In this document: in pieces, positions 8,811-42,984 of the stretch | How positions within the stretch are numbered: position 1 is the first letter of the stretch | How the letters are laid out: every line of letters begins with the position of its first letter | DNA from: Verrucomicrobiota bacterium | Lineage (GTDB): Bacteria; Verrucomicrobiota; Verrucomicrobiia; Limisphaerales; UBA8199 | Assembly (NCBI GenBank): GCA_049518415.1 | Contig: JBEKRX010000028.1 | Location: 4,604 to 68,603 of the forward strand | Direction of reading: 5' to 3' | Length of the DNA stretch: 64,000 bases | The notes under the pieces: generated by a model | Told to the model about the DNA's origin: nothing | Seen by the model: the letters and a program-made list of their open reading frames with translations, nothing else | Database searches by the model: none | Translations under genes and position numbers: made by a program

Positions 8811-11054
8811 TTGCATGATATGTTAATGCGTCCCTCATTGGCCGGACGCGTGTGCGCTCGACTCGACGCAGGGAAGCGCATGATTTATCGATTTCGACAC
8901 GGGATTATCGGGCCGTTAGCCATCTTTTGGCTGATCGTCACGGTAGCCAGCGTGGTGATGGGAGCGGTGGCCTGGAACCGCTTTTCCCGCAGCATCGACG
9001 CATCGGCTGAGGCCGAGCAGTTTCGCGAGTCGATGAATCAACTCTTCTCGGTTTTGCAGGACGCCGAGGCCAGCCAGCGAGGTTACCTACTGACGGGGAA
9101 CGGGGCTTACCGTGAAGCCTTCACGAACCTGGCCCGTACTTTCCCTGAGGCATTCGAGCGGCTGGCTGCGTCCGCGAGGCACGACCCGGCGGGGCAAACG
9201 GACTTAATCGAGCTGCGTCGTCTGGTTGACCTCGAACTGGCGGACCTGAGCCAAGCCATCGCGCGGCGCGCCGAGAAAGATCCCGCAGGGTCAGAGGTGG
9301 CCGCCAGTGCCGAGCAAACCAGGACGACGATGGACCGCATCCGTGAGATCATCAAACGGCGGCACGATAATCGGCTGGATTTCCTGTCCGCCGCCGGCGA
9401 GGCCACCCGCCACGAAATGAAATTGGTCCACCAAATGACCTGGATGGCCGGGTTGCTCGGGATTGGGGCGGGGTTGTTCGCGCTGTATTTTTACCGGATC
9501 GATTATTACCAGGAGCGAGCGCGGCGGGAGTTGCTGGAAGAGAAGCTGCACGCGGAGCAAGCGGTCCGGGAGAAGAGCGCCTTCCTGGCCAACATGAGCC
9601 ATGAGATTCGCAGCCCCATGAACGCGATTCTCGGTTTCAGCGAACTGTTGGAGCCGGAGGGGCTGACGCCGAAGCAATCGCAATATGTGCGGGCCATTCG
9701 CGACAGCGGCGCGGCGTTGCTGCATCTGATCAACGACATTCTGGACCTGTCCAAGCTCGAGGCGGGCAAGTTGGAACTGCACCCCGATCCCACGGATATG
9801 CGGGATTCGTGCGAGTTTCTGCGCACCGTTTTCGGGCAGCAGGCCGTAATGAAATCGCTCCAACTTCAGTTCGAGCTCTCACCCAACCTGCCCCGTGCGT
9901 TGTTGCTGGATCGCCTGCGGTTGCGCCAGGTGCTGGTGAACTTGCTCAGCAATGCCATTAAGTTCACCGACCGGGGTTGCGTTAAGACGCGAGTCTCCTG
10001 GGAAAGCCAGGGAGACAGCCGCAGCGGGACGCTGTTGATCGACGTGGAGGACACCGGCATCGGAATCCCGGCTGAGGAACTGGAGGAAGTTTTCAAACCT
10101 TTTGTTCAGGCGGACTCTCTGCGAACGGCGGAAAAGGAAGGAACCGGCATTGGGCTGACTATCGTCAAGCGCCTCACCGAGTTGATGGGGGGCAGCCTGG
10201 CTGTCAAGAGCGCGGTTGGCCAAGGCACGGTCTTCCACTTGCGTTTCGCGAATGTTCCCGTCTCGGGGCGGTTGCCGGTGGGAGATCACGCCGAACCGGG
10301 CGGAGCGGTGGACTTCAATGACTTCGCGCCGGCCACGCTGCTGATGGTGGATGACAACAAGACCAATCGAGCCTTGATGGCTGGGATATTTGAGAAGACC
10401 CATCACCAAGTCCATTTTGCCAACAACGGTCAGGAAGCGTTGGAGTGTCTGGGGAAGGCAAAGCCCGATGTGGTATTGCTGGATATCCGAATGCCGGTGA
10501 TGGACGGGCGGACGACCCTGGCGGAGATTCGCAAGCAAGCGAGTCTGGTGTCGCTGCCGGTCATCGCGGTCACTGCCTCGAGCAGGGCCGGCGAAGAGAC
10601 GGAGCTGCAGCGCCAGTTCAGCGGCTACATTCGCAAGCCCTTCTCGCGCCAAACGCTCTTTGTAGCGCTGGCTCAGTTTCTCCAAAGGGCCTCGCCCGGC
10701 AATGGACTGGAGAGTCAGAATCTCGGGGAAACCCTCCAGAGTATTCCCATCCCTTCGTCCGACCAGGCCGCTCAGTGGCAGGAACTGGCTCTGGAACTGC
10801 GCCGCCAGGAGGCAACCGAATGGCCGACGTTGCGGGAGAGCCTGGCGGTTAATGAGACGCGGGCCTTTGCGCACAAGCTCTTTCTCCTCGGCCAGGCGGC
10901 GCAATGTGGTCCACTGGCCACTTATGCCGCCACGCTCACGACGCTGGCCGACGCCTACGCCATCGGCCAAATGGAACGTCATCTGGCTGCGTTCCCCAAA
11001 CTGGTCGAGTCCATAGAAAGCTCTTTGGCCCAGGCCCAACTGCAACCAGTATGA
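8811..11054 (+). CDS. hybrid sensor histidine kinase (CHASE3-like sensor, HisKA, HATPase, receiver, HPt)
   Basis: CHASE3-like N-terminus (LQDAEASQRGYLLTGNGAYREAF) after one TM helix. H-box SHEIRSPMNAILGF, ATPase blocks (DTGIGIP, GTGIGLTIV), receiver (LLMVDDNKTNR, VVLLDIRMPVMDG, KPF) and an HPt-like helix (FAHKLFLLGQAAQCG). Start may be the ATG at 8880. Confidence 0.9.
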   Translation: MHDMLMRPSLAGRVCARLDAGKRMIYRFRHGIIGPLAIFWLIVTVASVVMGAVAWNRFSRSIDASAEAEQFRESMNQLFSVLQDAEASQRGYLLTGNGAYREAFTNLARTFPEAFERLAASARHDPAGQTDLIELRRLVDLELADLSQAIARRAEKDPAGSEVAASAEQTRTTMDRIREIIKRRHDNRLDFLSAAGEATRHEMKLVHQMTWMAGLLGIGAGLFALYFYRIDYYQERARRELLEEKLHAEQAVREKSAFLANMSHEIRSPMNAILGFSELLEPEGLTPKQSQYVRAIRDSGAALLHLINDILDLSKLEAGKLELHPDPTDMRDSCEFLRTVFGQQAVMKSLQLQFELSPNLPRALLLDRLRLRQVLVNLLSNAIKFTDRGCVKTRVSWESQGDSRSGTLLIDVEDTGIGIPAEELEEVFKPFVQADSLRTAEKEGTGIGLTIVKRLTELMGGSLAVKSAVGQGTVFHLRFANVPVSGRLPVGDHAEPGGAVDFNDFAPATLLMVDDNKTNRALMAGIFEKTHHQVHFANNGQEALECLGKAKPDVVLLDIRMPVMDGRTTLAEIRKQASLVSLPVIAVTASSRAGEETELQRQFSGYIRKPFSRQTLFVALAQFLQRASPGNGLESQNLGETLQSIPIPSSDQAAQWQELALELRRQEATEWPTLRESLAVNETRAFAHKLFLLGQAAQCGPLATYAATLTTLADAYAIGQMERHLAAFPKLVESIESSLAQAQLQPV

Positions 11055-19513: not shown

Positions 19514-19590
19514 TGGCGCGTCCGGCAGGACTTGAACCTGCAACCTTCTGATCCGAAGTCAGAAGCTCTATCCAATTGAGCTACGGACGC
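19514..19590 (-). tRNA. tRNA-Arg (anticodon UCG), CCA encoded
   Basis: The reverse complement folds as a cloverleaf: acceptor GCGTCCG/CGGACGC, D stem GCTC/GAGC, anticodon stem TCTGA/TCAGA with loop CTTCGGA (anticodon TCG), T stem GCAGG/CCTGC with loop TTCAAGT, then GCCA. Confidence 0.92.
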
Positions 19591-30531: not shown

Positions 30532-31452
30532 GTGGAAAACCTTTGGCATATCGTGACCGGCCTCTGGACGCAGATATTCGGCGGCTGGCGGCCGGTGGTG
30601 GAAATCCTCATCCTCACGGTGGGCATTTACGGCGCCCTGCGGTTCGTCCGGGGGACGCGGGGCGCGCCGGTGGTGATGGGTTTTCTGGTGGCGCTGCTGG
30701 CGCTGGTGCTGATGAGCTTTGTGCTGGGGCTCAAAGTGCTGCAGTACCTGCTGGGAGCGTTCTACGCGTTTTTCCTGCTGGCGGTGCTGGTGATTTTCCA
30801 GCCCGAGTTGCGGCGGATGTTGGCGGAACTGGGCAATTTGCCGCTCCTGGCGACCGTCCGCGAGCAACGCGAGAACATCGAGGTCATCATTCAGACGGTC
30901 GAACGCCTGGCGGAGGTCCGCATCGGCGCGCTCATCGCCATCGAGCAATCCATCCACCTCCAGGAGGCGGTGGAATCGGGCATTATCGTCGACTGTGTGG
31001 CCACGCCCGAGATGTTGGAAACGATTTTCTTCCCGAATAACGCGATTCACGACGGGGGCGTCATTATCCGGGGCGACCGGATTGCGTTCGCGGCCTGCAT
31101 CTTTCCCCTGACGCAACGCCGGGATTTGAACCCGTCGCTGGGCACGCGCCACCGCGCGGCCATCGGTCTGAGCGAAGAAACCGACGCGGCGGTGGTGGTC
31201 GTGTCCGAAGAGACCGGGGGGATTGCTTACGCCTGCAAAGGGCAATTGGTGCGCAACGTGACGCTGGAGGAATTGCGGGCCTTCCTGACCTCGGTGTTCG
31301 TGACTCCCGCCCGCTCGCGCAACTGGCTCGCCTGGATTCGGTCCTGGACCACCGAACGGGCCAAACCGGGGCCGGTCCATGCGGCCCGGGCCGACGCCCC
31401 GTCCACGGCCTCAACCGCGGGCGCCACAACCACGACGGGCCTGGCCAAATGA
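30532..31452 (+). CDS. cdaA: diadenylate cyclase CdaA (three N-terminal TM helices plus DAC domain)
   Basis: DAC-domain blocks IGALIAIEQ, HDGGVIIRGDRIAFAACIFPLT and GTRHRAAIGLSEETDAAVVVVSEETG follow hydrophobic N-terminal helices. Unusual long Ala/Thr-rich C-terminal tail. Confidence 0.9.
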   Translation: MENLWHIVTGLWTQIFGGWRPVVEILILTVGIYGALRFVRGTRGAPVVMGFLVALLALVLMSFVLGLKVLQYLLGAFYAFFLLAVLVIFQPELRRMLAELGNLPLLATVREQRENIEVIIQTVERLAEVRIGALIAIEQSIHLQEAVESGIIVDCVATPEMLETIFFPNNAIHDGGVIIRGDRIAFAACIFPLTQRRDLNPSLGTRHRAAIGLSEETDAAVVVVSEETGGIAYACKGQLVRNVTLEELRAFLTSVFVTPARSRNWLAWIRSWTTERAKPGPVHAARADAPSTASTAGATTTTGLAK

Positions 31453-31874
31453 TCACTTTCCTGCGCAACCTCATTGTCAAGGACCTGGGCCTGAAGGTCT
31501 TCTCGCTGGTCCTGGCCATCCTGATTTATTGCACGATCAGCTTTGCCATTAGGAACGAGGTCCCTTCCCTCCCGTCGCTCGGGATGGCCAGTGATGTCCG
31601 TCGCTTCCACAACCTGCCGGTCCTGGTGGTGTCTTCGGCCGCCGACGTGCGCCGGTTCAAGGTGACTCCGGAAACGGTCGCCGTGACGGTCCAAGGGGAC
31701 CCCCAGGTGCTGGCGGGCCTGGAAAGCAGCGAAATCCGGGCGCTGGTGGACCTGACCGGGATCGCCCCCGCCAGCCACCTCCGCAAGCGCATCGAGGTGT
31801 CCACCCCGGCAGGCGTCACGCACCTCCGGGTCCTGCCGACCGAGGTGCAGGTCATCTTCCCGCCCGACCATTGA
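31449..31874 (+). CDS. cdaR: YbbR-like (CdaR-type) single-domain protein
   Basis: The ATG overlaps the cdaA stop (ATGA). N-terminal anchor LGLKVFSLVLAILIY typical of YbbR/CdaR proteins, then one beta-rich domain. Only 141 aa, whereas Firmicute CdaR has several YbbR domains. Position between cdaA and glmM supports the call. Confidence 0.65.
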   Translation: MITFLRNLIVKDLGLKVFSLVLAILIYCTISFAIRNEVPSLPSLGMASDVRRFHNLPVLVVSSAADVRRFKVTPETVAVTVQGDPQVLAGLESSEIRALVDLTGIAPASHLRKRIEVSTPAGVTHLRVLPTEVQVIFPPDH

Positions 31875-31935
31875 ACCGGCCGTTCCGGCTCGGCTTTTGC
31901 CTTCTCCATGGCTTGATTAGGATATTCCCGACGAC

Positions 31936-33318
31936 ATGACTAAAGTGAAGCGAATCTTCGGCACCGATGGCGTGCGTGGAACGGCCAATGTCGAACCGGT
32001 CACGGCCGAAACGGCCCTCAGACTGGGCCGGGCGGCCGGGCATGTTTTCAAGAGCCTCCAAACCCAGGCGCGCGACCGCATCCGCCACCGCATAGTGATC
32101 GGCAAAGACACCCGCCTGTCCGGTTACATGCTCGAAAACGCCCTCTCCTCCGGCATCCTTTCGATGGGGGTGGACGTCTTGCTGATCGGCCCGCTGCCCA
32201 CCCCCGGCGTGGCCTACGTCACCCGCAGCCTCCGCGCCGATGCCGGCATCGTCATCACCGCTTCGCACAATCGCTACGACGACAACGGCATCAAGTTCTT
32301 CCGCGCCGACGGCTACAAGCTGGAGGACAAGATCGAGCAGCAAATCGAAGGCCTGGTCTTCAGCGGCGAGATCGAAAACATCCGCCCGACGGCGGACCAA
32401 ATCGGCAAAGCGGTGCGGATCGACGACGCCCTGGGCCGCTACATCGAGCACGCCAAGGCCTCCTTCCCGCGCGGCCTCATTCTGGAGGGCCTGCGCATCG
32501 TCGTGGACTGCGCCCACGGCGCCAGCTACAAGTCCACCCCCTGCGTCCTGCGCGAATTAGGGGCCGACGTCATCATCTATGGCAACCAACCCGATGGCAA
32601 AAACATCAACCAGGACTGCGGCTCCATGCACCCCGGCCTCCTTTGCCAGAAAGTCTGGGAGCACCGCGCCGACGTCGGCCTGGCCCACGACGGCGACGCC
32701 GACCGCGCCTTGTTGTGCGACGAAGCCGGCAAGCTGATCGATGGCGACGACATCATGGCCATCGCCGCCCTGGACCTCCTGGCCCAGGACGCCCTCCACG
32801 AAAAAACCCTGGTGGCCACCGTCATGAGCAACGCCGGCCTCGACGCCGCCATTCAGGCGGCCGGCGGGCGGGTCGTCCGCACGCCCGTCGGCGACAAGAG
32901 CGTCATGGACGAAATGCTGCGGCACGGCTTCAACCTCGGCGGCGAGCAGAGCGGGCATATCATCTTCCGCGATTTGAGCACCACGGGCGACGGCCTGGTG
33001 GCCGCCCTCCAGGTCCTGCGCATCATGAAAACCAAAGGCGCCTCCCTTGCTCGCCTGGCCCAGTGCTGGACCCGCTTTCCCCAACTGCTCACCAATATCC
33101 TCGTCCGCGAAAAGCGCCCTTTCGCCGAGTTGGACTGTGTCTCGCAGCTCGTGGCCGACGCCCAAAGCGAATTGCAGGCCCAGGGCGGGCGCGTGCTCCT
33201 GCGCTACTCCGGCACCGAACCCAAGGCGCGCCTGCTCCTGGAAGGACGCGACCCCGCCGCGCTCAGCCGCTGGTCAAATAAGATCGCCGAGGCCATCAAA
33301 AAGCAAGTCGGAGCGTAG
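31936..33318 (+). CDS. glmM: phosphoglucosamine mutase
   Basis: IFGTDGVRG, active-site loop TASHNRYDDNGIKFF, metal loop AHDGDADR and GGEQSGH sugar-binding block. 460 aa. Confidence 0.95.
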   Translation: MTKVKRIFGTDGVRGTANVEPVTAETALRLGRAAGHVFKSLQTQARDRIRHRIVIGKDTRLSGYMLENALSSGILSMGVDVLLIGPLPTPGVAYVTRSLRADAGIVITASHNRYDDNGIKFFRADGYKLEDKIEQQIEGLVFSGEIENIRPTADQIGKAVRIDDALGRYIEHAKASFPRGLILEGLRIVVDCAHGASYKSTPCVLRELGADVIIYGNQPDGKNINQDCGSMHPGLLCQKVWEHRADVGLAHDGDADRALLCDEAGKLIDGDDIMAIAALDLLAQDALHEKTLVATVMSNAGLDAAIQAAGGRVVRTPVGDKSVMDEMLRHGFNLGGEQSGHIIFRDLSTTGDGLVAALQVLRIMKTKGASLARLAQCWTRFPQLLTNILVREKRPFAELDCVSQLVADAQSELQAQGGRVLLRYSGTEPKARLLLEGRDPAALSRWSNKIAEAIKKQVGA

Positions 33319-33324
33319 CGCGCC

Positions 33325-34113
33325 TCAGGGCAGGCTGAGGAGCTCCGCGCGCAGGCGCCCGACAAACTGACTGGGCATCCGGGGATCAAGCGACCCCGGC
33401 ACAAACCGTTCCGGCCCCACGTGGCCGTCGCAGAATACCGCCTCGGCCTTTTGCGCATGACGGAAATGTCCATTGGGTTGATTGGTGCTGTTGTCCAGGT
33501 AGTACCATTCCTCGAGCATCGGGTTGGCGGGTGAAGCGGGCGCTTGCCAGGTGTTCACTTGGGCGGCATCCGCCAGCAACACGGTGCCGGCCGGCCGTAG
33601 CAGCCGGCTCAGATTGATCGGCGCCTGCCCCGGCGCCGCCGAAAGGTAAAGATTGTAGCCGTATCCGTAAGTGGCGCCGCGCGCCTTGGCTTTGAACTGC
33701 GACAGGAAGTAATTGAAGGCGGGGCAGAGCTCGACCCCGCGTCCTTGCAGATAGGGATACAGGGCGCCGCAGGTGGCGTCGAAGGCGCGCGCGCCTTCTG
33801 CGCCCGGCCCCATCCAACCAAACCAGTAAAGCTGCCCGCCATTGGTATAAGCGCCGCCATACCGGAAACAGTTGCCGCCGTTGTCGTCCCAGTAGAGGTT
33901 GGCTGCCAACTCAAGCTGGTGCAGGTTGCTGAGGCACTTGATGCGTTGGGCCGAGGCCTTGCTCCGGGACAACGCCGGCAAGAGCAGCGCCGCCAGAACG
34001 GCGATGAGGGCGATGACGACCAGCAGCTCGAGGAGCGTGAAGGCAGAGCCCAGGGACTGCTGGCCCCGCTCTTTCTGGCCGGAGGGCTGACAGACACGCG
34101 CGCCGCTTTTCAT
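33325..34113 (-). CDS. prepilin-type N-terminal cleavage/methylation protein with DUF1559 (H-X9-DG) domain
   Basis: GSAFTLLELLVVIALIAVLAALLLPALSRSK N-terminus and C-terminal HFRHAQKAEAVFCDGHV motif. ATG at 34113 lies 2 nt after the upstream stop. Confidence 0.85.
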   Translation of the reverse strand: MKSGARVCQPSGQKERGQQSLGSAFTLLELLVVIALIAVLAALLLPALSRSKASAQRIKCLSNLHQLELAANLYWDDNGGNCFRYGGAYTNGGQLYWFGWMGPGAEGARAFDATCGALYPYLQGRGVELCPAFNYFLSQFKAKARGATYGYGYNLYLSAAPGQAPINLSRLLRPAGTVLLADAAQVNTWQAPASPANPMLEEWYYLDNSTNQPNGHFRHAQKAEAVFCDGHVGPERFVPGSLDPRMPSQFVGRLRAELLSLP

Positions 34114-34115
34114 GG

Positions 34116-35111
34116 TCACTCCACTTGCACGCGATAACACGCCCGGTCGGCCGGCGCGCCCGGGTCTTGCAAGGCCAGGTTGGTGCCGTTGCCGGCCGTG
34201 GCTGGCGAAACGGCCGTCCAGGATTGGAAATCAGCGGTGCGTTGGAGCGTGTAGAGCCGGTTGGTGAGACTGAGGAACTCAACCTGCCAGGCGCCGTTGG
34301 TGAATCGGCCGGCGAGGTTGGGAGGCGGAGGCGCGGCGAGGCTCACCCGGAAGTTGTCCACCGTGCCATGGGCGAGAATGGAACCGGCAAAGGAGGGGTC
34401 CTGCCCGGCATCACTGTAACTGCACACGGCCACGTGATCGACGCGAAAGTCCCGGAAAGAGGCCCCGAGATAGGCGTCCCCGAGCGGCCCGAAGGGCAGG
34501 CCGTTGCAGGTCAGGCTCGTGCGCAGGACCCGCTCGGCAGCAGTGTAGGCCAGGTCCACCTGGAAGGAGTCGTTCGGGCTCAACGTCAGCGAGCCAAAAC
34601 CGCCGCTGGACCAGTTTGTGCCGGTCCAATCACAGAACATGACGGTCACCGAAGGCCCCCAAACCCAGGCCCCCCCTGGGTCGGGAAAGAAACTGAATTC
34701 GACGAGGTCCGGAGAATCGGACCCCGTCCCGCGCACAAAACCGGTTTGGGTGGCCTGCGCCAGGTTGATGAGCCCCACCGACAGCTCGAAAGGATAGGGC
34801 TTGTCCGGATTGACGCCCGCGGCGAAGTCGCTCAACCGCAAGTCGAAGCCGAGGCTGAAATCCGCCTCTTGGCCCAGCACGGTTCCCAGGGGATGCGCGA
34901 AATAACTGTTGGGGCGCGAGGAATCCCAGGTGACTTGGAGGTCGTGGTTCGTGGGATTCCATTGGAAAAGGTTGGTGTCGCCCAATACTCGCCAACCCCG
35001 CCCGGCCGGGTCGGTGGAGAAATCCTCCTGGAAAGTAATGGCGGCAGAACCAATGCCAATGGTGGCAAACCAGCCCGCCAGGGCCAGCGCAGACCAACGG
35101 ATTCCATGCAT
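34116..35111 (-). CDS. secreted hypothetical protein (first gene downstream of the cobalamin riboswitch)
   Basis: 331-aa ORF with a signal-like N-terminus (WSALALAGWFATIGIGSAA) and beta-rich composition. The C-terminal module ends in YRVQVE, similar in style to the LRR protein's terminus. No family recognised. Confidence 0.75.
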   Translation of the reverse strand: MHGIRWSALALAGWFATIGIGSAAITFQEDFSTDPAGRGWRVLGDTNLFQWNPTNHDLQVTWDSSRPNSYFAHPLGTVLGQEADFSLGFDLRLSDFAAGVNPDKPYPFELSVGLINLAQATQTGFVRGTGSDSPDLVEFSFFPDPGGAWVWGPSVTVMFCDWTGTNWSSGGFGSLTLSPNDSFQVDLAYTAAERVLRTSLTCNGLPFGPLGDAYLGASFRDFRVDHVAVCSYSDAGQDPSFAGSILAHGTVDNFRVSLAAPPPPNLAGRFTNGAWQVEFLSLTNRLYTLQRTADFQSWTAVSPATAGNGTNLALQDPGAPADRACYRVQVE

Positions 35112-35210
35112 AAGCTGATCTTTCTACCGCGCGCGCAGGAACAACCCAGGGCCTGCCCGCGCAGCTCTTGTTACCAACAGGTTTGGCTAGAGAGACCAGC
35201 GCGGAGTCAG

Positions 35211-35252
35211 AAAATAAAAAACCTTCAGACCCCGACAAATCAGAGAATGAAG
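35211..35252 (-). terminator. possible intrinsic terminator / riboswitch expression platform
   Basis: The minus strand reads CCTTCA-(20 nt)-TGAAGG followed by TTTTTTATTTT, a conspicuous U-run in a high-GC genome. The stem is short and the loop long, so this is weak. Confidence 0.3.
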
Positions 35253-35393
35253 GCATTCGACGAATCCGGCCGCGCACCCGCCCGGCCGGCTGGCCTCATC
35301 CTTCTCTTTGACGGAGAAGTCGGCCGTTCGGACGGCAGGTCTGCCTGCCGGCGCCCGGAGGCGGCCACGCCTCCGTGAAACGGCCGTGACGAG

Positions 35394-35547
35394 CACAGCC
35401 AAACCGATATCCTGACTTCGGGCTGGGGACCTCGCTCCCGCCTTCCCGGTCTCGCCCAGGCGAGGCCAGTGGCTTTGGGAGTCTGTAACCCGTTACAGTG
35501 GCGCAACCGTCCCCGATTCTCACGGGGTTCCCTGACGCTTGGCTGTG
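35394..35547 (-). promoter_or_regulatory. cobalamin (B12) riboswitch
   Basis: The minus strand reads CACAGCCAAGCGUCAGGGAACCCCGUGAGAAUCGGGGACGGUUGCGCCACUGUAACGGG..AGCCACUGGCC..GACCGGGAAGGCGGG..AGCCCGAAGUCAGGAUAUCGGUUUGGCUGUG. It has a 9-bp P1 helix (CACAGCCAA/UUGGCUGUG), GGGAA, GUGAGAAUC, GCCACUG and GGGAAGGC blocks, and a B12-box-like 3' segment. Confidence 0.85.
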
Positions 35548-35667
35548 TCTTTTCAAAGAACAGCCTTTACCTATCCCGCCGCGCGCCCATTGCCAAGAAA
35601 AATCTTTGCTTGCTCTGCGCCAAGTTCAACTTGCAACTTCCACCCCCGCGTCCGACACTCCCGCGCC

Positions 35668-41038: not shown

Positions 41039-41872
41039 TCAAAAGTAGCTCAGGAATTGCTGCATAAGCTCAAACGCGCGGCGAGCTTGCATCGCCTGTG
41101 TTTCCGCATCAACCGCACCGTGAAACTCCACGACTTGTCCCGGGCCAAAAGCGTCCACACTGGCAAATTTTTCCCGCAGGATTTCGAGTGCTCGGGCAAC
41201 TTCCTTCTCTTTGAGCCCGTTCTTCCAAACGGTAGCCAACGCGTTCATGCCGTCCGGAAAGTGTTCGAGACAATAGCAGAAATCGTACGCATCTTTGGGC
41301 TTGTCTCGCCCGGCCAAAGCATGTGCCTTCATCACCAGGAAGTCTGGCAGTGATGCGATGCGCCAGCGCACCTTGTTATTGGCCCCGCGCACTGTCCTGC
41401 CCGAAACCTCCATCCTTACCGGTGCGCGGAATGCCGCACCACAGGCATCCGCCTGCAAAACCCGGAAACCTTCCAGAAGTTTGGGCCGATTCCTTTTCAG
41501 CTTCACTTGCCGCGACGCCAGGAATTCGACTTCCACTTCAACCGGCTTCTCGCCGTCCTTCAAGTCCACCTCGACCACGAGTTGAAACGGTTTCGCTCCA
41601 CGTTTGTAGCGGCCAGTGTCCAGCAGCAGCTTGAGCAAGTCAGCATATCGGCCATCGGCGAGTTTCTTCGCATCGAGAGCCAGGTCCACGTCAATGCTCC
41701 CAACGTGTGGTTCGTCCGCTTGTTCCAACAGGAGATCGGGCACCCAACCACCGACGACCACAAGACAGTCTTCAAACGCCGCCAATACCTGCCCAAGGTC
41801 AACCAGAACGCGCCGAGCGGCTTCGACTTGGCGCGGACTGTAGTCGTCACGCTGGCGAGGTTCGGGATTCAC
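41039..41872 (-). CDS. nucleotidyltransferase, AbiEii/AbiGii-toxin-like
   Basis: The GTG at 41872 overlaps the upstream stop (GTGA). NTase-fold motif LVVVGGWVPDLL...GSIDVDLALD and C-terminal GRDKPKDAYDFCYCLEHF as in AbiEii-type proteins. Confidence 0.7.
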   Translation of the reverse strand: MNPEPRQRDDYSPRQVEAARRVLVDLGQVLAAFEDCLVVVGGWVPDLLLEQADEPHVGSIDVDLALDAKKLADGRYADLLKLLLDTGRYKRGAKPFQLVVEVDLKDGEKPVEVEVEFLASRQVKLKRNRPKLLEGFRVLQADACGAAFRAPVRMEVSGRTVRGANNKVRWRIASLPDFLVMKAHALAGRDKPKDAYDFCYCLEHFPDGMNALATVWKNGLKEKEVARALEILREKFASVDAFGPGQVVEFHGAVDAETQAMQARRAFELMQQFLSYF

Positions 41873-42984
41873 AATAAACCTCGCGCTTTCCAGGCACGCT
41901 TGAGATTCTGTTCCAGCAACGCTTCGGCGGCCTCTTCGCCGCGTCCGCCGCAATGAAACAAGTCCACGTAAGTTTGCACCGCGTTGGTGCAAGCCAGCCG
42001 GTCGGCCTCTCCTTCCCGTAGATAGAATACGCCCTCATCGGCGGGGATGAGCACCACGAGGTTTTCGCCTGAGTCCACGAGCTTCGCTTCGGCCGCGTCC
42101 CGAAAAGCGTCCTCCCATTCCGCACTGACAAACACCCACGTTTTGGGTTGTCGCACATGCGGTGCCTGGAAATCTGCGGCAGAGAACGCGGCGTAAGCTG
42201 CGTGTCCTCCGATGATGGATTCAAGTGGGGCGAGTTTCTCTTGCAGTTGCCGGCCTTGCAGCAGTGTGAAATAACTGCGGCGCTGGTGACGGTCAAAGCG
42301 GTAAGCGTCGCGCCACGCCGTCAGTAATTCGAGCGGAGCATGCAACTTGAAGCCGCCGTCTGGCAGATCCTCAATAAATGCTTCGTCGTGGAGATGGCGG
42401 ACGACTTTGTTTACCAAACCAATGCTGACGTTAGGTTGAGAGTGAAGTCGCAAGTCTTGTTGAGTCCATTTCCGCCCGGCATTGTCCGTTGCGAGCAGTG
42501 CGCGGATGACACGCGCTGCTTCAGGAGTGCCGAGATTGGCTGAGCGTCGCTGAGGGCCATGTACAGGCTCTTGACCCGTTCTTTCGAGGTGCAACACGCC
42601 GGGCACGCTCAGGCGATAGTTGCCCGCAAGATCGAACCAACTCCAACCATGTTTCTGGCAGATTTCTGCCATTCGTGGCGAAATATACGGCGCGGCAAAA
42701 ACAAACACCTGAGGTTTGCTTGCAGGTTGATAATAATGGGTGACGTCAACGTAAGGAAACTGGGAAGGGCGCGGGTCGGCCTTGCACTCGACGTGTAACT
42801 CGGCCGTAATGCCACCCGGCAGCGGCAAGGTGGCTGTTATATCGAATCCAGCATCATCCCTGAATGCTGCCAGAGCCCGCTGGACTTTCCAGTCCTTCAG
42901 CCACGGCACACCTCCAAGCAATTCACGAAGCTTGTCTGCGACTGCCTTTTCCAGCGCGAAACCAGATATCCGCGCCTTGTTCAT
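41869..42984 (-). CDS. AbiEi-antitoxin-like protein with N-terminal PD-(D/E)xK nuclease-like module
   Basis: The N-terminus has D..(E)xK spacing (AGFDITATLPLPGGITAELHVECKAD). The middle is a winged-helix-like segment (WTQQDLRLHSQPNVSIGLVNKVVRHLHDEAFIE). The C-terminus (TWVFVSAEW...NLVVL...VQTYVDLFHCGGRGEEAAEALL) resembles the AbiEi C-terminal domain. Confidence 0.65.
   Translation of the reverse strand: MNKARISGFALEKAVADKLRELLGGVPWLKDWKVQRALAAFRDDAGFDITATLPLPGGITAELHVECKADPRPSQFPYVDVTHYYQPASKPQVFVFAAPYISPRMAEICQKHGWSWFDLAGNYRLSVPGVLHLERTGQEPVHGPQRRSANLGTPEAARVIRALLATDNAGRKWTQQDLRLHSQPNVSIGLVNKVVRHLHDEAFIEDLPDGGFKLHAPLELLTAWRDAYRFDRHQRRSYFTLLQGRQLQEKLAPLESIIGGHAAYAAFSAADFQAPHVRQPKTWVFVSAEWEDAFRDAAEAKLVDSGENLVVLIPADEGVFYLREGEADRLACTNAVQTYVDLFHCGGRGEEAAEALLEQNLKRAWKARGLL

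Follow-up and report, generated by a model that had tools for sequence, protein, structure and literature searches.

A 64,000-nucleotide (nt) stretch of contig JBEKRX010000028.1 (assembly GCA_049518415.1, Verrucomicrobiota, order Limisphaerales), hereafter called the window, carries on its reverse strand a cobalamin (Cbl) riboswitch followed by two genes, here named A and B, which encode a 331-aa secreted protein and a 262-aa prepilin-type protein. The locus is a sharply defined two-gene unit under a B12-sensor RNA, and the regulatory link between the riboswitch and A/B is very well supported by its recurrence at all checkable loci of related Verrucomicrobiota from soil and freshwater. We consider it probable that the locus is a B12-repressed operon of Limisphaerales/Pedosphaera-type Verrucomicrobiota, with A and B as its core, which serves the capture of corrinoids at the cell envelope. 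The initial annotation of this DNA had put the locus forward as a candidate new B12-responsive module, and the significant riboswitch match, the conserved link to gene A and the co-occurrence of B support this proposal. The features are listed below in the direction of transcription.

35385..35557 (-), cobalamin riboswitch aptamer, RF00174 (Rfam covariance-model match)
35255..35384 (-), leader between the aptamer and the terminator (alignment and RNAalifold of 32 compact leaders)
35211..35254 (-), intrinsic-terminator-like hairpin and U-run, the expression platform (folding and conservation)
35114..35200 (-), conserved helix of the 5' untranslated region (UTR), GCUGGUCUCUC (35200-35190) / GAAAGAUCAGC (35124-35114) (alignment of 20 UTRs)
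34116..35111 (-), gene A, 331-aa secreted protein (open reading frame (ORF); public gene callers agree on identical contigs)
33325..34113 (-), gene B, 262-aa prepilin-type protein with an H-x9-DG motif, starting 2 nt past the stop of A

Both ORFs and the 2-nt gap between them had been described in the initial annotation, and exactly these two are given by the public gene callers on identical metagenomic contigs.

The riboswitch, its leader and gene A

An Rfam scan of the 64-kb window yielded two matches above the curated thresholds, RF00174 and one tRNA, and no other riboswitch. The RF00174 match spans model positions 1-189 with 66.8 bits (gathering score 31.5; E 2.6e-14), confirming the riboswitch that had been predicted on the reverse strand near 35394-35547. 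The elements listed with that prediction are all present in the alignment as well as in the sequence, namely the P1 helix (CACAGCCAA/UUGGCUGUG), GGGAA, the CCCCGUGAGAAUCGGGG hairpin (CCCCG...CGGGG), GCCACUG, GGGAAGGC and the B12-box-like element CCCGAAGUCAGGAUA. An alignment of 12 aptamers shows an unchanging core and compensatory exchanges in P1, as in CACAGCC/GGCUGUG versus CACCGCC/GGCGGUG. The aptamer is an ordinary RF00174 member with an unusually long and conserved expression platform.

A scan of GTDB, with each species represented by one genome, found relatives of A in 253 species-level genomes, and the best 80 loci were analyzed. Apart from a few evidently mis-binned labels of metagenome-assembled genomes (MAGs), these are labeled Verrucomicrobiota, Limisphaerales, Pedosphaera or subdivision 3. 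At the curated Rfam cutoff, RF00174 lies upstream and on the same strand as A in 13/13 loci of each of two batches (26/26). A custom covariance model, R1, built from 12 of the related aptamers, gives one match upstream on A's strand in 74 of the 80 loci (47-185 bits); in the other six, the available sequence ahead of the A homolog measures only 4-810 nt. The association is as complete as the data allow, and the expectation that homologs of the 331-aa protein are tied to B12 riboswitches holds. The riboswitch is also present at the loci of a distant family member (P0268, L086) and of a tandem-domain member (P0003, L087). Six operon-bearing contigs (L029, L034, L035, L049, L077 and L079) are labeled as Binatia, Sulfopaludibacter, Bifidobacterium, Haliangiales or Bifidobacteriaceae MAGs, which probably represents binning contamination.

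It is extremely improbable that A and B escape control by the riboswitch, the latter being instead an orphan or terminated leader RNA or acting on the divergent upstream neighbor trpA. Such a reading could draw on the strong terminator between the aptamer and gene A, on the distance of about 270 nt from the aptamer to the AUG, and on a sigma-70 promoter scan in which no promoter was detected. Against it, the aptamer lies on A's strand and reads towards A, whereas trpA is on the opposite strand; a terminator 3' of the aptamer is the normal design of an OFF switch, and the entire leader is conserved up to the AUG. Moreover, flanking genes differ by locus (trpA in the window; malate dehydrogenase, ABC ATPases and others elsewhere) while the riboswitch-A unit persists, so that regulation of a divergent gene cannot explain the association.

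The leader segment between the aptamer and the terminator contains GCUCGUC, a variable covarying hairpin, a CUUCUC-CGUCAAA-GAGAAG hairpin, an invariant GGAUGAGGCC and a second variable GC-rich hairpin. Its fold is junction-like, combining the two variable covarying hairpins with the invariant GCUCGUC and GAGAAGGAUGAGGCC, and scores a z of -4.5 against shuffles. The conservation of this segment far exceeds the need of a plain terminator platform. A sensitive Rfam scan of the leader gave nothing significant besides RF00174, and neither the junction nor the start-proximal helix described below matches a family.

The hairpin plus U-run that the initial annotation had placed at 35211-35252 is real and occupies 35254-35211, with a folding energy of about -17 kcal/mol (z -4.0 against shuffles). 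It reads GCCUUCA..CUCUGA-UUUG-UCGGGG..UGAAGG followed by UUUUUUAUUUU, and was overlooked by a general terminator scan because of its internal loop. The motif of its 5' arm, GCCUUCAUUC, occurs in 72/74 leaders, 78-190 nt past the aptamer, and in most related leaders a terminator hairpin with a folding energy between -13 and -29 kcal/mol precedes a U-run. Across 61 aligned copies of the stem, 91.8% of cells are paired, compared with 36-57% when the partners are slid. Two further segments, the invariant aptamer-core segment GGGAAGGCGG and the likewise invariant GAAGGAUGAGGC, are complementary to the 5' arm at similar energies.

Downstream of the terminator, the helix GCUGGUCUCUC/GAAAGAUCAGC is invariant in sequence and encloses a variable, covarying hairpin; the window copy ends 2 nt 5' of the AUG of A. 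Both arms are found in 68 of the 74 leaders with the AUG 1-4 nt past the 3' arm, irrespective of whether the first gene is A or an optional gene, C, which is treated below. This start-proximal helix may add a second, translational layer of control.

From the anatomy of the leader and the behavior of most Cbl riboswitches we infer OFF logic, with B12 leading to termination. When B12 is plentiful, the ligand-bound aptamer would let the terminator at 35254-35211 form, the helix next to the start codon may close as well, and transcripts would end before gene A. When B12 is scarce, the 5' arm of the terminator would pair elsewhere, with GGGAAGGCGG or GAAGGAUGAGGC as candidate partners, allowing read-through and the joint production of A and B. 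In common with classical Cbl OFF switches such as the btuB and cob leaders of E. coli and Salmonella, the RNA described here has a full aptamer (P1, B12 box, core) and a downstream terminator that could form as an alternative; it differs from them in that its leader is unusually long and strongly conserved, has the extra junction and start-proximal helix, and precedes new types of genes.

Proteins A and B

Protein A comprises a Sec-type signal peptide (by inspection), a lectin-like beta-sandwich of about 240 aa (AN) and a C-terminal beta-sandwich of about 70 aa (AC). As had been noted from the sequence, it belongs to no recognizable family: neither Pfam nor NCBIfam provides a match. Its 1626 homologs are all unnamed or hypothetical and stem from Verrucomicrobiota genomes and metagenomes, and 316 clusters (50% identity) were recovered at E<=1e-30 when its profile was run against 1.84 billion cluster representatives. 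Outside the combination with AN, AC occurs in the window and the related loci only in one ORF of L010, and the idea that AC is a general sorting tag was therefore rejected.

An AlphaFold2 model of A made with 30 homologs (predicted local distance difference test, pLDDT, 86.6) consists of an N-terminal two-sheet beta-sandwich and a C-terminal, immunoglobulin-like beta-sandwich of about 70 residues. In a Foldseek comparison with the PDB, legume lectins ranked at the top (E ~3e-8, target-normalized template modeling (TM) score ~0.5-0.6, 10-16% identity), and the remaining matches include lectin domains from bacterial adhesins (Aap, SraP) and an alginate lyase. Lectin Pfam models did not match A, and one weak Laminin_G_3 match was seen in 1/30 members. 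The initial annotation had suggested a Foldseek comparison with corrinoid binders; no B12 binder is among the 50 matches listed. Judged by its predicted structure, A represents a previously undescribed orphan lectin-fold family.

BtuG is a YncE-like seven-bladed beta-propeller (PF16819), and the DUF4465 B12 binders (BtuJ), which include members from the Planctomycetota-Verrucomicrobiota-Chlamydiota (PVC) bacteria, are beta-jellyrolls with a conserved HI-loop motif (G/N)TPAY(F) (bioRxiv 10.1101/2025.08.21.671476). The model of A shows no seven-bladed propeller and A has no Pfam match of that kind; no GTPAY-like motif stands among its conserved residues, and DUF4465 is matched by none of A, B and C even at permissive E-values. 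With BtuJ/DUF4465, A has only the broad fold class (beta-sandwich/jellyroll) in common. A gave no match to BtuH, and neither A nor B matches PF01497 (BtuF).

For B, the label prepilin-type/DUF1559 had been proposed. Its first half stands: B scores 21.3 bits with TIGR02532, the model for prepilin N-termini (cutoff 16.3), and its N-terminal sequence AFTLLELLVVIALIAVLAALLLPAL has a prepilin-type leader, Glu at +5 and a hydrophobic helix, with E29 invariant. PF07963 is matched by 47/48 orthologs, the window copy scoring 19.0 against 21.2. The N-terminal helix matches GspG, PilA and geopilin/type IV pilin structures with E 1e-8 to 1e-9, over the first ~55 residues after the leader only, and the ComGC and GspG NCBIfam models are matched as well. 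Thus B shares the prepilin leader, Glu +5 and long hydrophobic N-terminal helix of pseudopilins and minor pilins (GspG, ComGC, PilA), whereas its globular part is of the DUF1559/H-X9-DG type.

The second half of the label applies to the ortholog group, in which 41/48 members match DUF1559 (PF07596, SBP_bac_10) at E<=0.01 (best 1.8e-10) and some carry precomputed PF07596 annotations. Taken by itself the window copy is marginal: it aligns to just the C-terminal portion of the model and stays below the cutoff (12.7 bits, cutoff 23.3; E 0.13). The score against TIGR04294 (H-X9-DG) is 15.2 bits with a cutoff of 19. The motif itself is present as H219-x9-D229-G230, with H219 invariant and D229 nearly so among orthologs, which source databases name 'prepilin-type processing-associated H-X9-DG protein'. 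The orthologs form a tight group (67-83% identity among the top 120 matches). Compared with the window copies, B has a median identity of 62% and A one of 50%, B being the more conserved in 62/65 loci, and the invariant positions of B are rich in aromatic residues. This stronger conservation, together with the aromatic-rich invariant positions, makes B as good a candidate corrinoid binder as A.

In architecture, H-x9-DG motif and PVC host, B resembles the DUF1559/H-X9-DG proteins that are expanded in PVC bacteria; it differs from the others in being fixed beside gene A, behind a B12 riboswitch, as one tight ortholog group. To our knowledge, the family counts hundreds of paralogs per PVC genome and has no assigned function or regulator; the present locus offers the first regulatory handle on one of its members. 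The literature searched on DUF1559, Verrucomicrobia/Limisphaerales/Pedosphaera, B12 and pilins contained no account of a riboswitch-A-B module, and DUF1559 was rarely mentioned.

Operon architecture and optional genes

The ORFs downstream of each riboswitch were classed by BLAST in 75 loci, giving the following gene orders.

A then B, 40 loci
C, A, B, 22 loci
A alone, 6 loci
C-A fusion, with or without B, 4 loci
C, A, no B found, short locus, 1 locus
Split A (two ORFs), then B, 1 locus (L001)
One ORF spanning A and B, 1 locus (L032, 291-2138 after the riboswitch)

B directly follows A in 66/75 loci, in agreement with the co-occurrence of the two genes suggested in the initial annotation. The single A-B ORF of L032 and the split A of L001 may be sequencing or assembly errors, or else a real fusion and a real pseudogene.

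About a third of the operons contain C, a secreted protein of ~265 aa with a PEP-CTERM sorting motif in 29/33 members. The domain architectures of 269 family proteins include AN-AC (225), C-AN-AC (19), AN-AN-AC (8) and C-AN-AN-AC (1), and the repeated fusion of C and A argues that the two act together. Homology between A and C was considered and rejected: the hhalign probability of 97% obtained with full alignments fell to 1% once signal peptides were trimmed, the high score being an artifact of shared signal peptides and 5' extensions.

Searched against the whole PDB, the C profile matched 8blw chain B (E 8.6e-4), and with two more divergent members added the match improved to E 1.6e-4 (24.2 bits) over the collinear stretches 425-480 and 611-636. 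The matched chain is BtuG1, a Bacteroides thetaiotaomicron protein whose C-terminal part contains an additional B12-binding BtuH domain, and 7BIZ is BtuH2 in complex with B12 (PMC10404256, PMC8941943). Against 7biz_A (BtuH2) the C profile gave a weak match (E 0.41). At the sequence level the similarity between C and BtuH appears modest but specific. BtuH homologs have been reported from gut Bacteroidetes and three Firmicutes, not from Verrucomicrobiota.

A gene of the Peripla_BP_2 family (PF01497, BtuF/FhuD) stands between A and B in three operons (L087 8082-8849, L088 3191-3958 and L079 5935-6684), and in two further loci a PF01497 gene lies 3-4 kb downstream on the same strand (L069 9173-10288 and L002 4997-6106). 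The resemblance of C to the BtuH domain and the PF01497 gene in three operons hint independently at the corrinoid capture or uptake role that had been suggested for this gene pair. A small, cytoplasmic-looking protein, Cys_rich_CWC (PF14375, plus DUF5522), is encoded inside the operon in 16 loci, in either the C-A or the A-B interval; examples are L087 (7711-8085), L079, L065, L054, L027, L014, L018, L036, L069, L072 and L074. We know of no link between Cys_rich_CWC and B12. In L087, an Acido-Lenti-1 RNA motif (RF01687, 42 bits, cutoff 37) was also found at 9767-9812 (+), ~190 nt past the stop of B.

Probable corrinoid capture and alternative readings

Corrinoid capture is the reading we favor because the operon is under a B12 sensor, because its constant members are predicted exported or envelope proteins rather than enzymes or B12-independent isozymes, because BtuH-like and BtuF-type proteins have repeatedly joined or fused into it, and because the extracellular B12 binders already established include a class of beta-sandwich/jellyroll proteins (e.g., BtuJ/DUF4465). 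A would be exported via its Sec signal peptide, and B would be processed as a pseudopilin, its N-terminal helix anchoring or assembling it so that the conserved, aromatic-rich DUF1559-type domain is exposed. A and B would constitute the minimal unit, to which relatives add the PEP-CTERM-anchored, BtuH-like C, the Cys-rich CWC protein or the BtuF-type protein. The predicted location of A and B in the envelope and the corrinoid binding proposed for one or the other would allow the module to capture corrinoid outside the cytoplasmic membrane and hand it to a transporter encoded elsewhere.

The accessory proteins of Bacteroides btuB loci (BtuG, BtuH, BtuJ/DUF4465) provide the closest comparison. 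As here, a Cbl riboswitch lies upstream, exported beta-rich proteins from families not otherwise known are encoded and the operons are modular with domain fusions (propeller plus H-domain in BtuG1 there, C-A fusions here); in addition, the C profile resembles the BtuH domain and some operons contain a BtuF-type gene. In contrast to Bacteroides, the operon and its surroundings encode no TonB-dependent BtuB or BtuCD, none of the proteins is a lipoprotein, and the host phylum is Verrucomicrobiota. In sequence, A does not match PF16819, PF14717 (which we take to be the DUF4465/BtuJ family model) or any solved structure, and the obligatory pseudopilin-type DUF1559 partner has no counterpart in Bacteroides. 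Riboswitch-controlled corrinoid scavenging is known in kind; here it would be built from new protein families.

Several observations weigh against B12-repressed corrinoid capture. On the RNA side, the terminator shows almost no covariation, with two pairs doubly changed, a count matched by 54/500 shuffles; because the stem is conserved in sequence, covariation says little here. A single anti-terminator was sought as well, and two competing partners of similar energy, GGGAAGGCGG and GAAGGAUGAGGC, were found instead. On the protein side, A searched as a single sequence and as 30 aligned members against all PDB chains and Pfam gave nothing meaningful, and is not detectably related in sequence to BtuG, BtuH, BtuJ or BtuF; the structures that it resembles most are those of carbohydrate-binding legume lectins and not of B12 binders. 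The AlphaFold2 model of B (48 orthologs) has a pLDDT of 45, with only the N-terminal helix confident. The similarity of C to BtuH is weak, amounting to ~24 bits in two short stretches. Since the window operon itself lacks C, the BtuF-like gene and the CWC gene, the strongest functional hints come from its relatives. Finally, no btuB/TonB-dependent receptor, btuCD or cob genes were found within ±10 kb of A/B or of two other window genes.

The lectin-like fold of A and the pilin-like N-terminus of B also lend themselves to a different explanation, in which B12 starvation induces an adhesion or fiber module: A would be a glycan-binding lectin and B a pilin-like fiber subunit, by which starved cells attach to B12 producers or to particles. 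The closeness of A in structure to legume lectins and to the adhesin lectin domains of Aap and SraP, the bona fide pilin N-terminus of B and the lack of a transporter in the operon or nearby are all in keeping with this idea. We nevertheless judge it unlikely, as the optional genes (the BtuH-like C and the BtuF-type protein in three operons) suggest corrinoid handling, and the 10-16% identity of A to lectins at a TM score of ~0.5-0.6 points to similarity at the level of the fold only. Moreover, no pilus-assembly genes were detected within ±10 kb of A/B or of two other window genes, and no assembly ATPase, platform or secretin gene lies near B.

B12 might also act merely as an environmental or metabolic cue, with A and B serving an envelope role unrelated to corrinoids, such as the secretion of another substrate or surface remodeling. 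In its favor, A and B have no known ligand, and DUF1559/H-X9-DG is a huge paralogous family without an assigned function. To this we give little credence, since the riboswitch link is kept in all 74 testable loci, each from a distinct species, genes of the BtuH-like and BtuF-like types have entered this operon repeatedly, and riboswitch regulons nearly always concern the metabolite that is sensed.

Returning to corrinoid capture, a tentative extension, held with low confidence, is that A and B form a new route of corrinoid acquisition in PVC bacteria, in which the DUF1559 pseudopilin would be a B12 receptor or the carrier of a lectin-fold B12-binding partner, possibly on a retractile pseudopilus, and would replace or precede the TonB-dependent step. 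If true, this would be the first function for a DUF1559/H-X9-DG member and would imply that other paralogs are substrate-capture modules. Corrinoid binding by A, B or C would widen the range of B12-binding folds and of uptake architectures beyond BtuG, BtuH and BtuJ of Bacteroides. B12 is a keystone shared nutrient, and we know of no account of how the abundant Verrucomicrobiota of soil, peat and freshwater obtain it.

Downstream of the module lie convergent genes for a glmM-type phosphoglucosamine mutase, ybbR, diadenylate cyclase (cdaA/DAC) and folP. The module often adjoins this glmM-ybbR-cdaA(DAC)-folP cluster, which occupies 30532-33318 (+) in the window and is found in 28 related loci; the site of insertion thus shows partial synteny across species, with a variable neighbor upstream. 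Elsewhere in the window, the sole tRNA is tRNA-Arg(TCG) at 19514-19590 (-). At ~41039-42984 (-), a gene with a weak match to AbiEii-type nucleotidyltransferase toxins overlaps the stop of an upstream 371-aa gene without a family, and the two may form an AbiE-like toxin-antitoxin pair.

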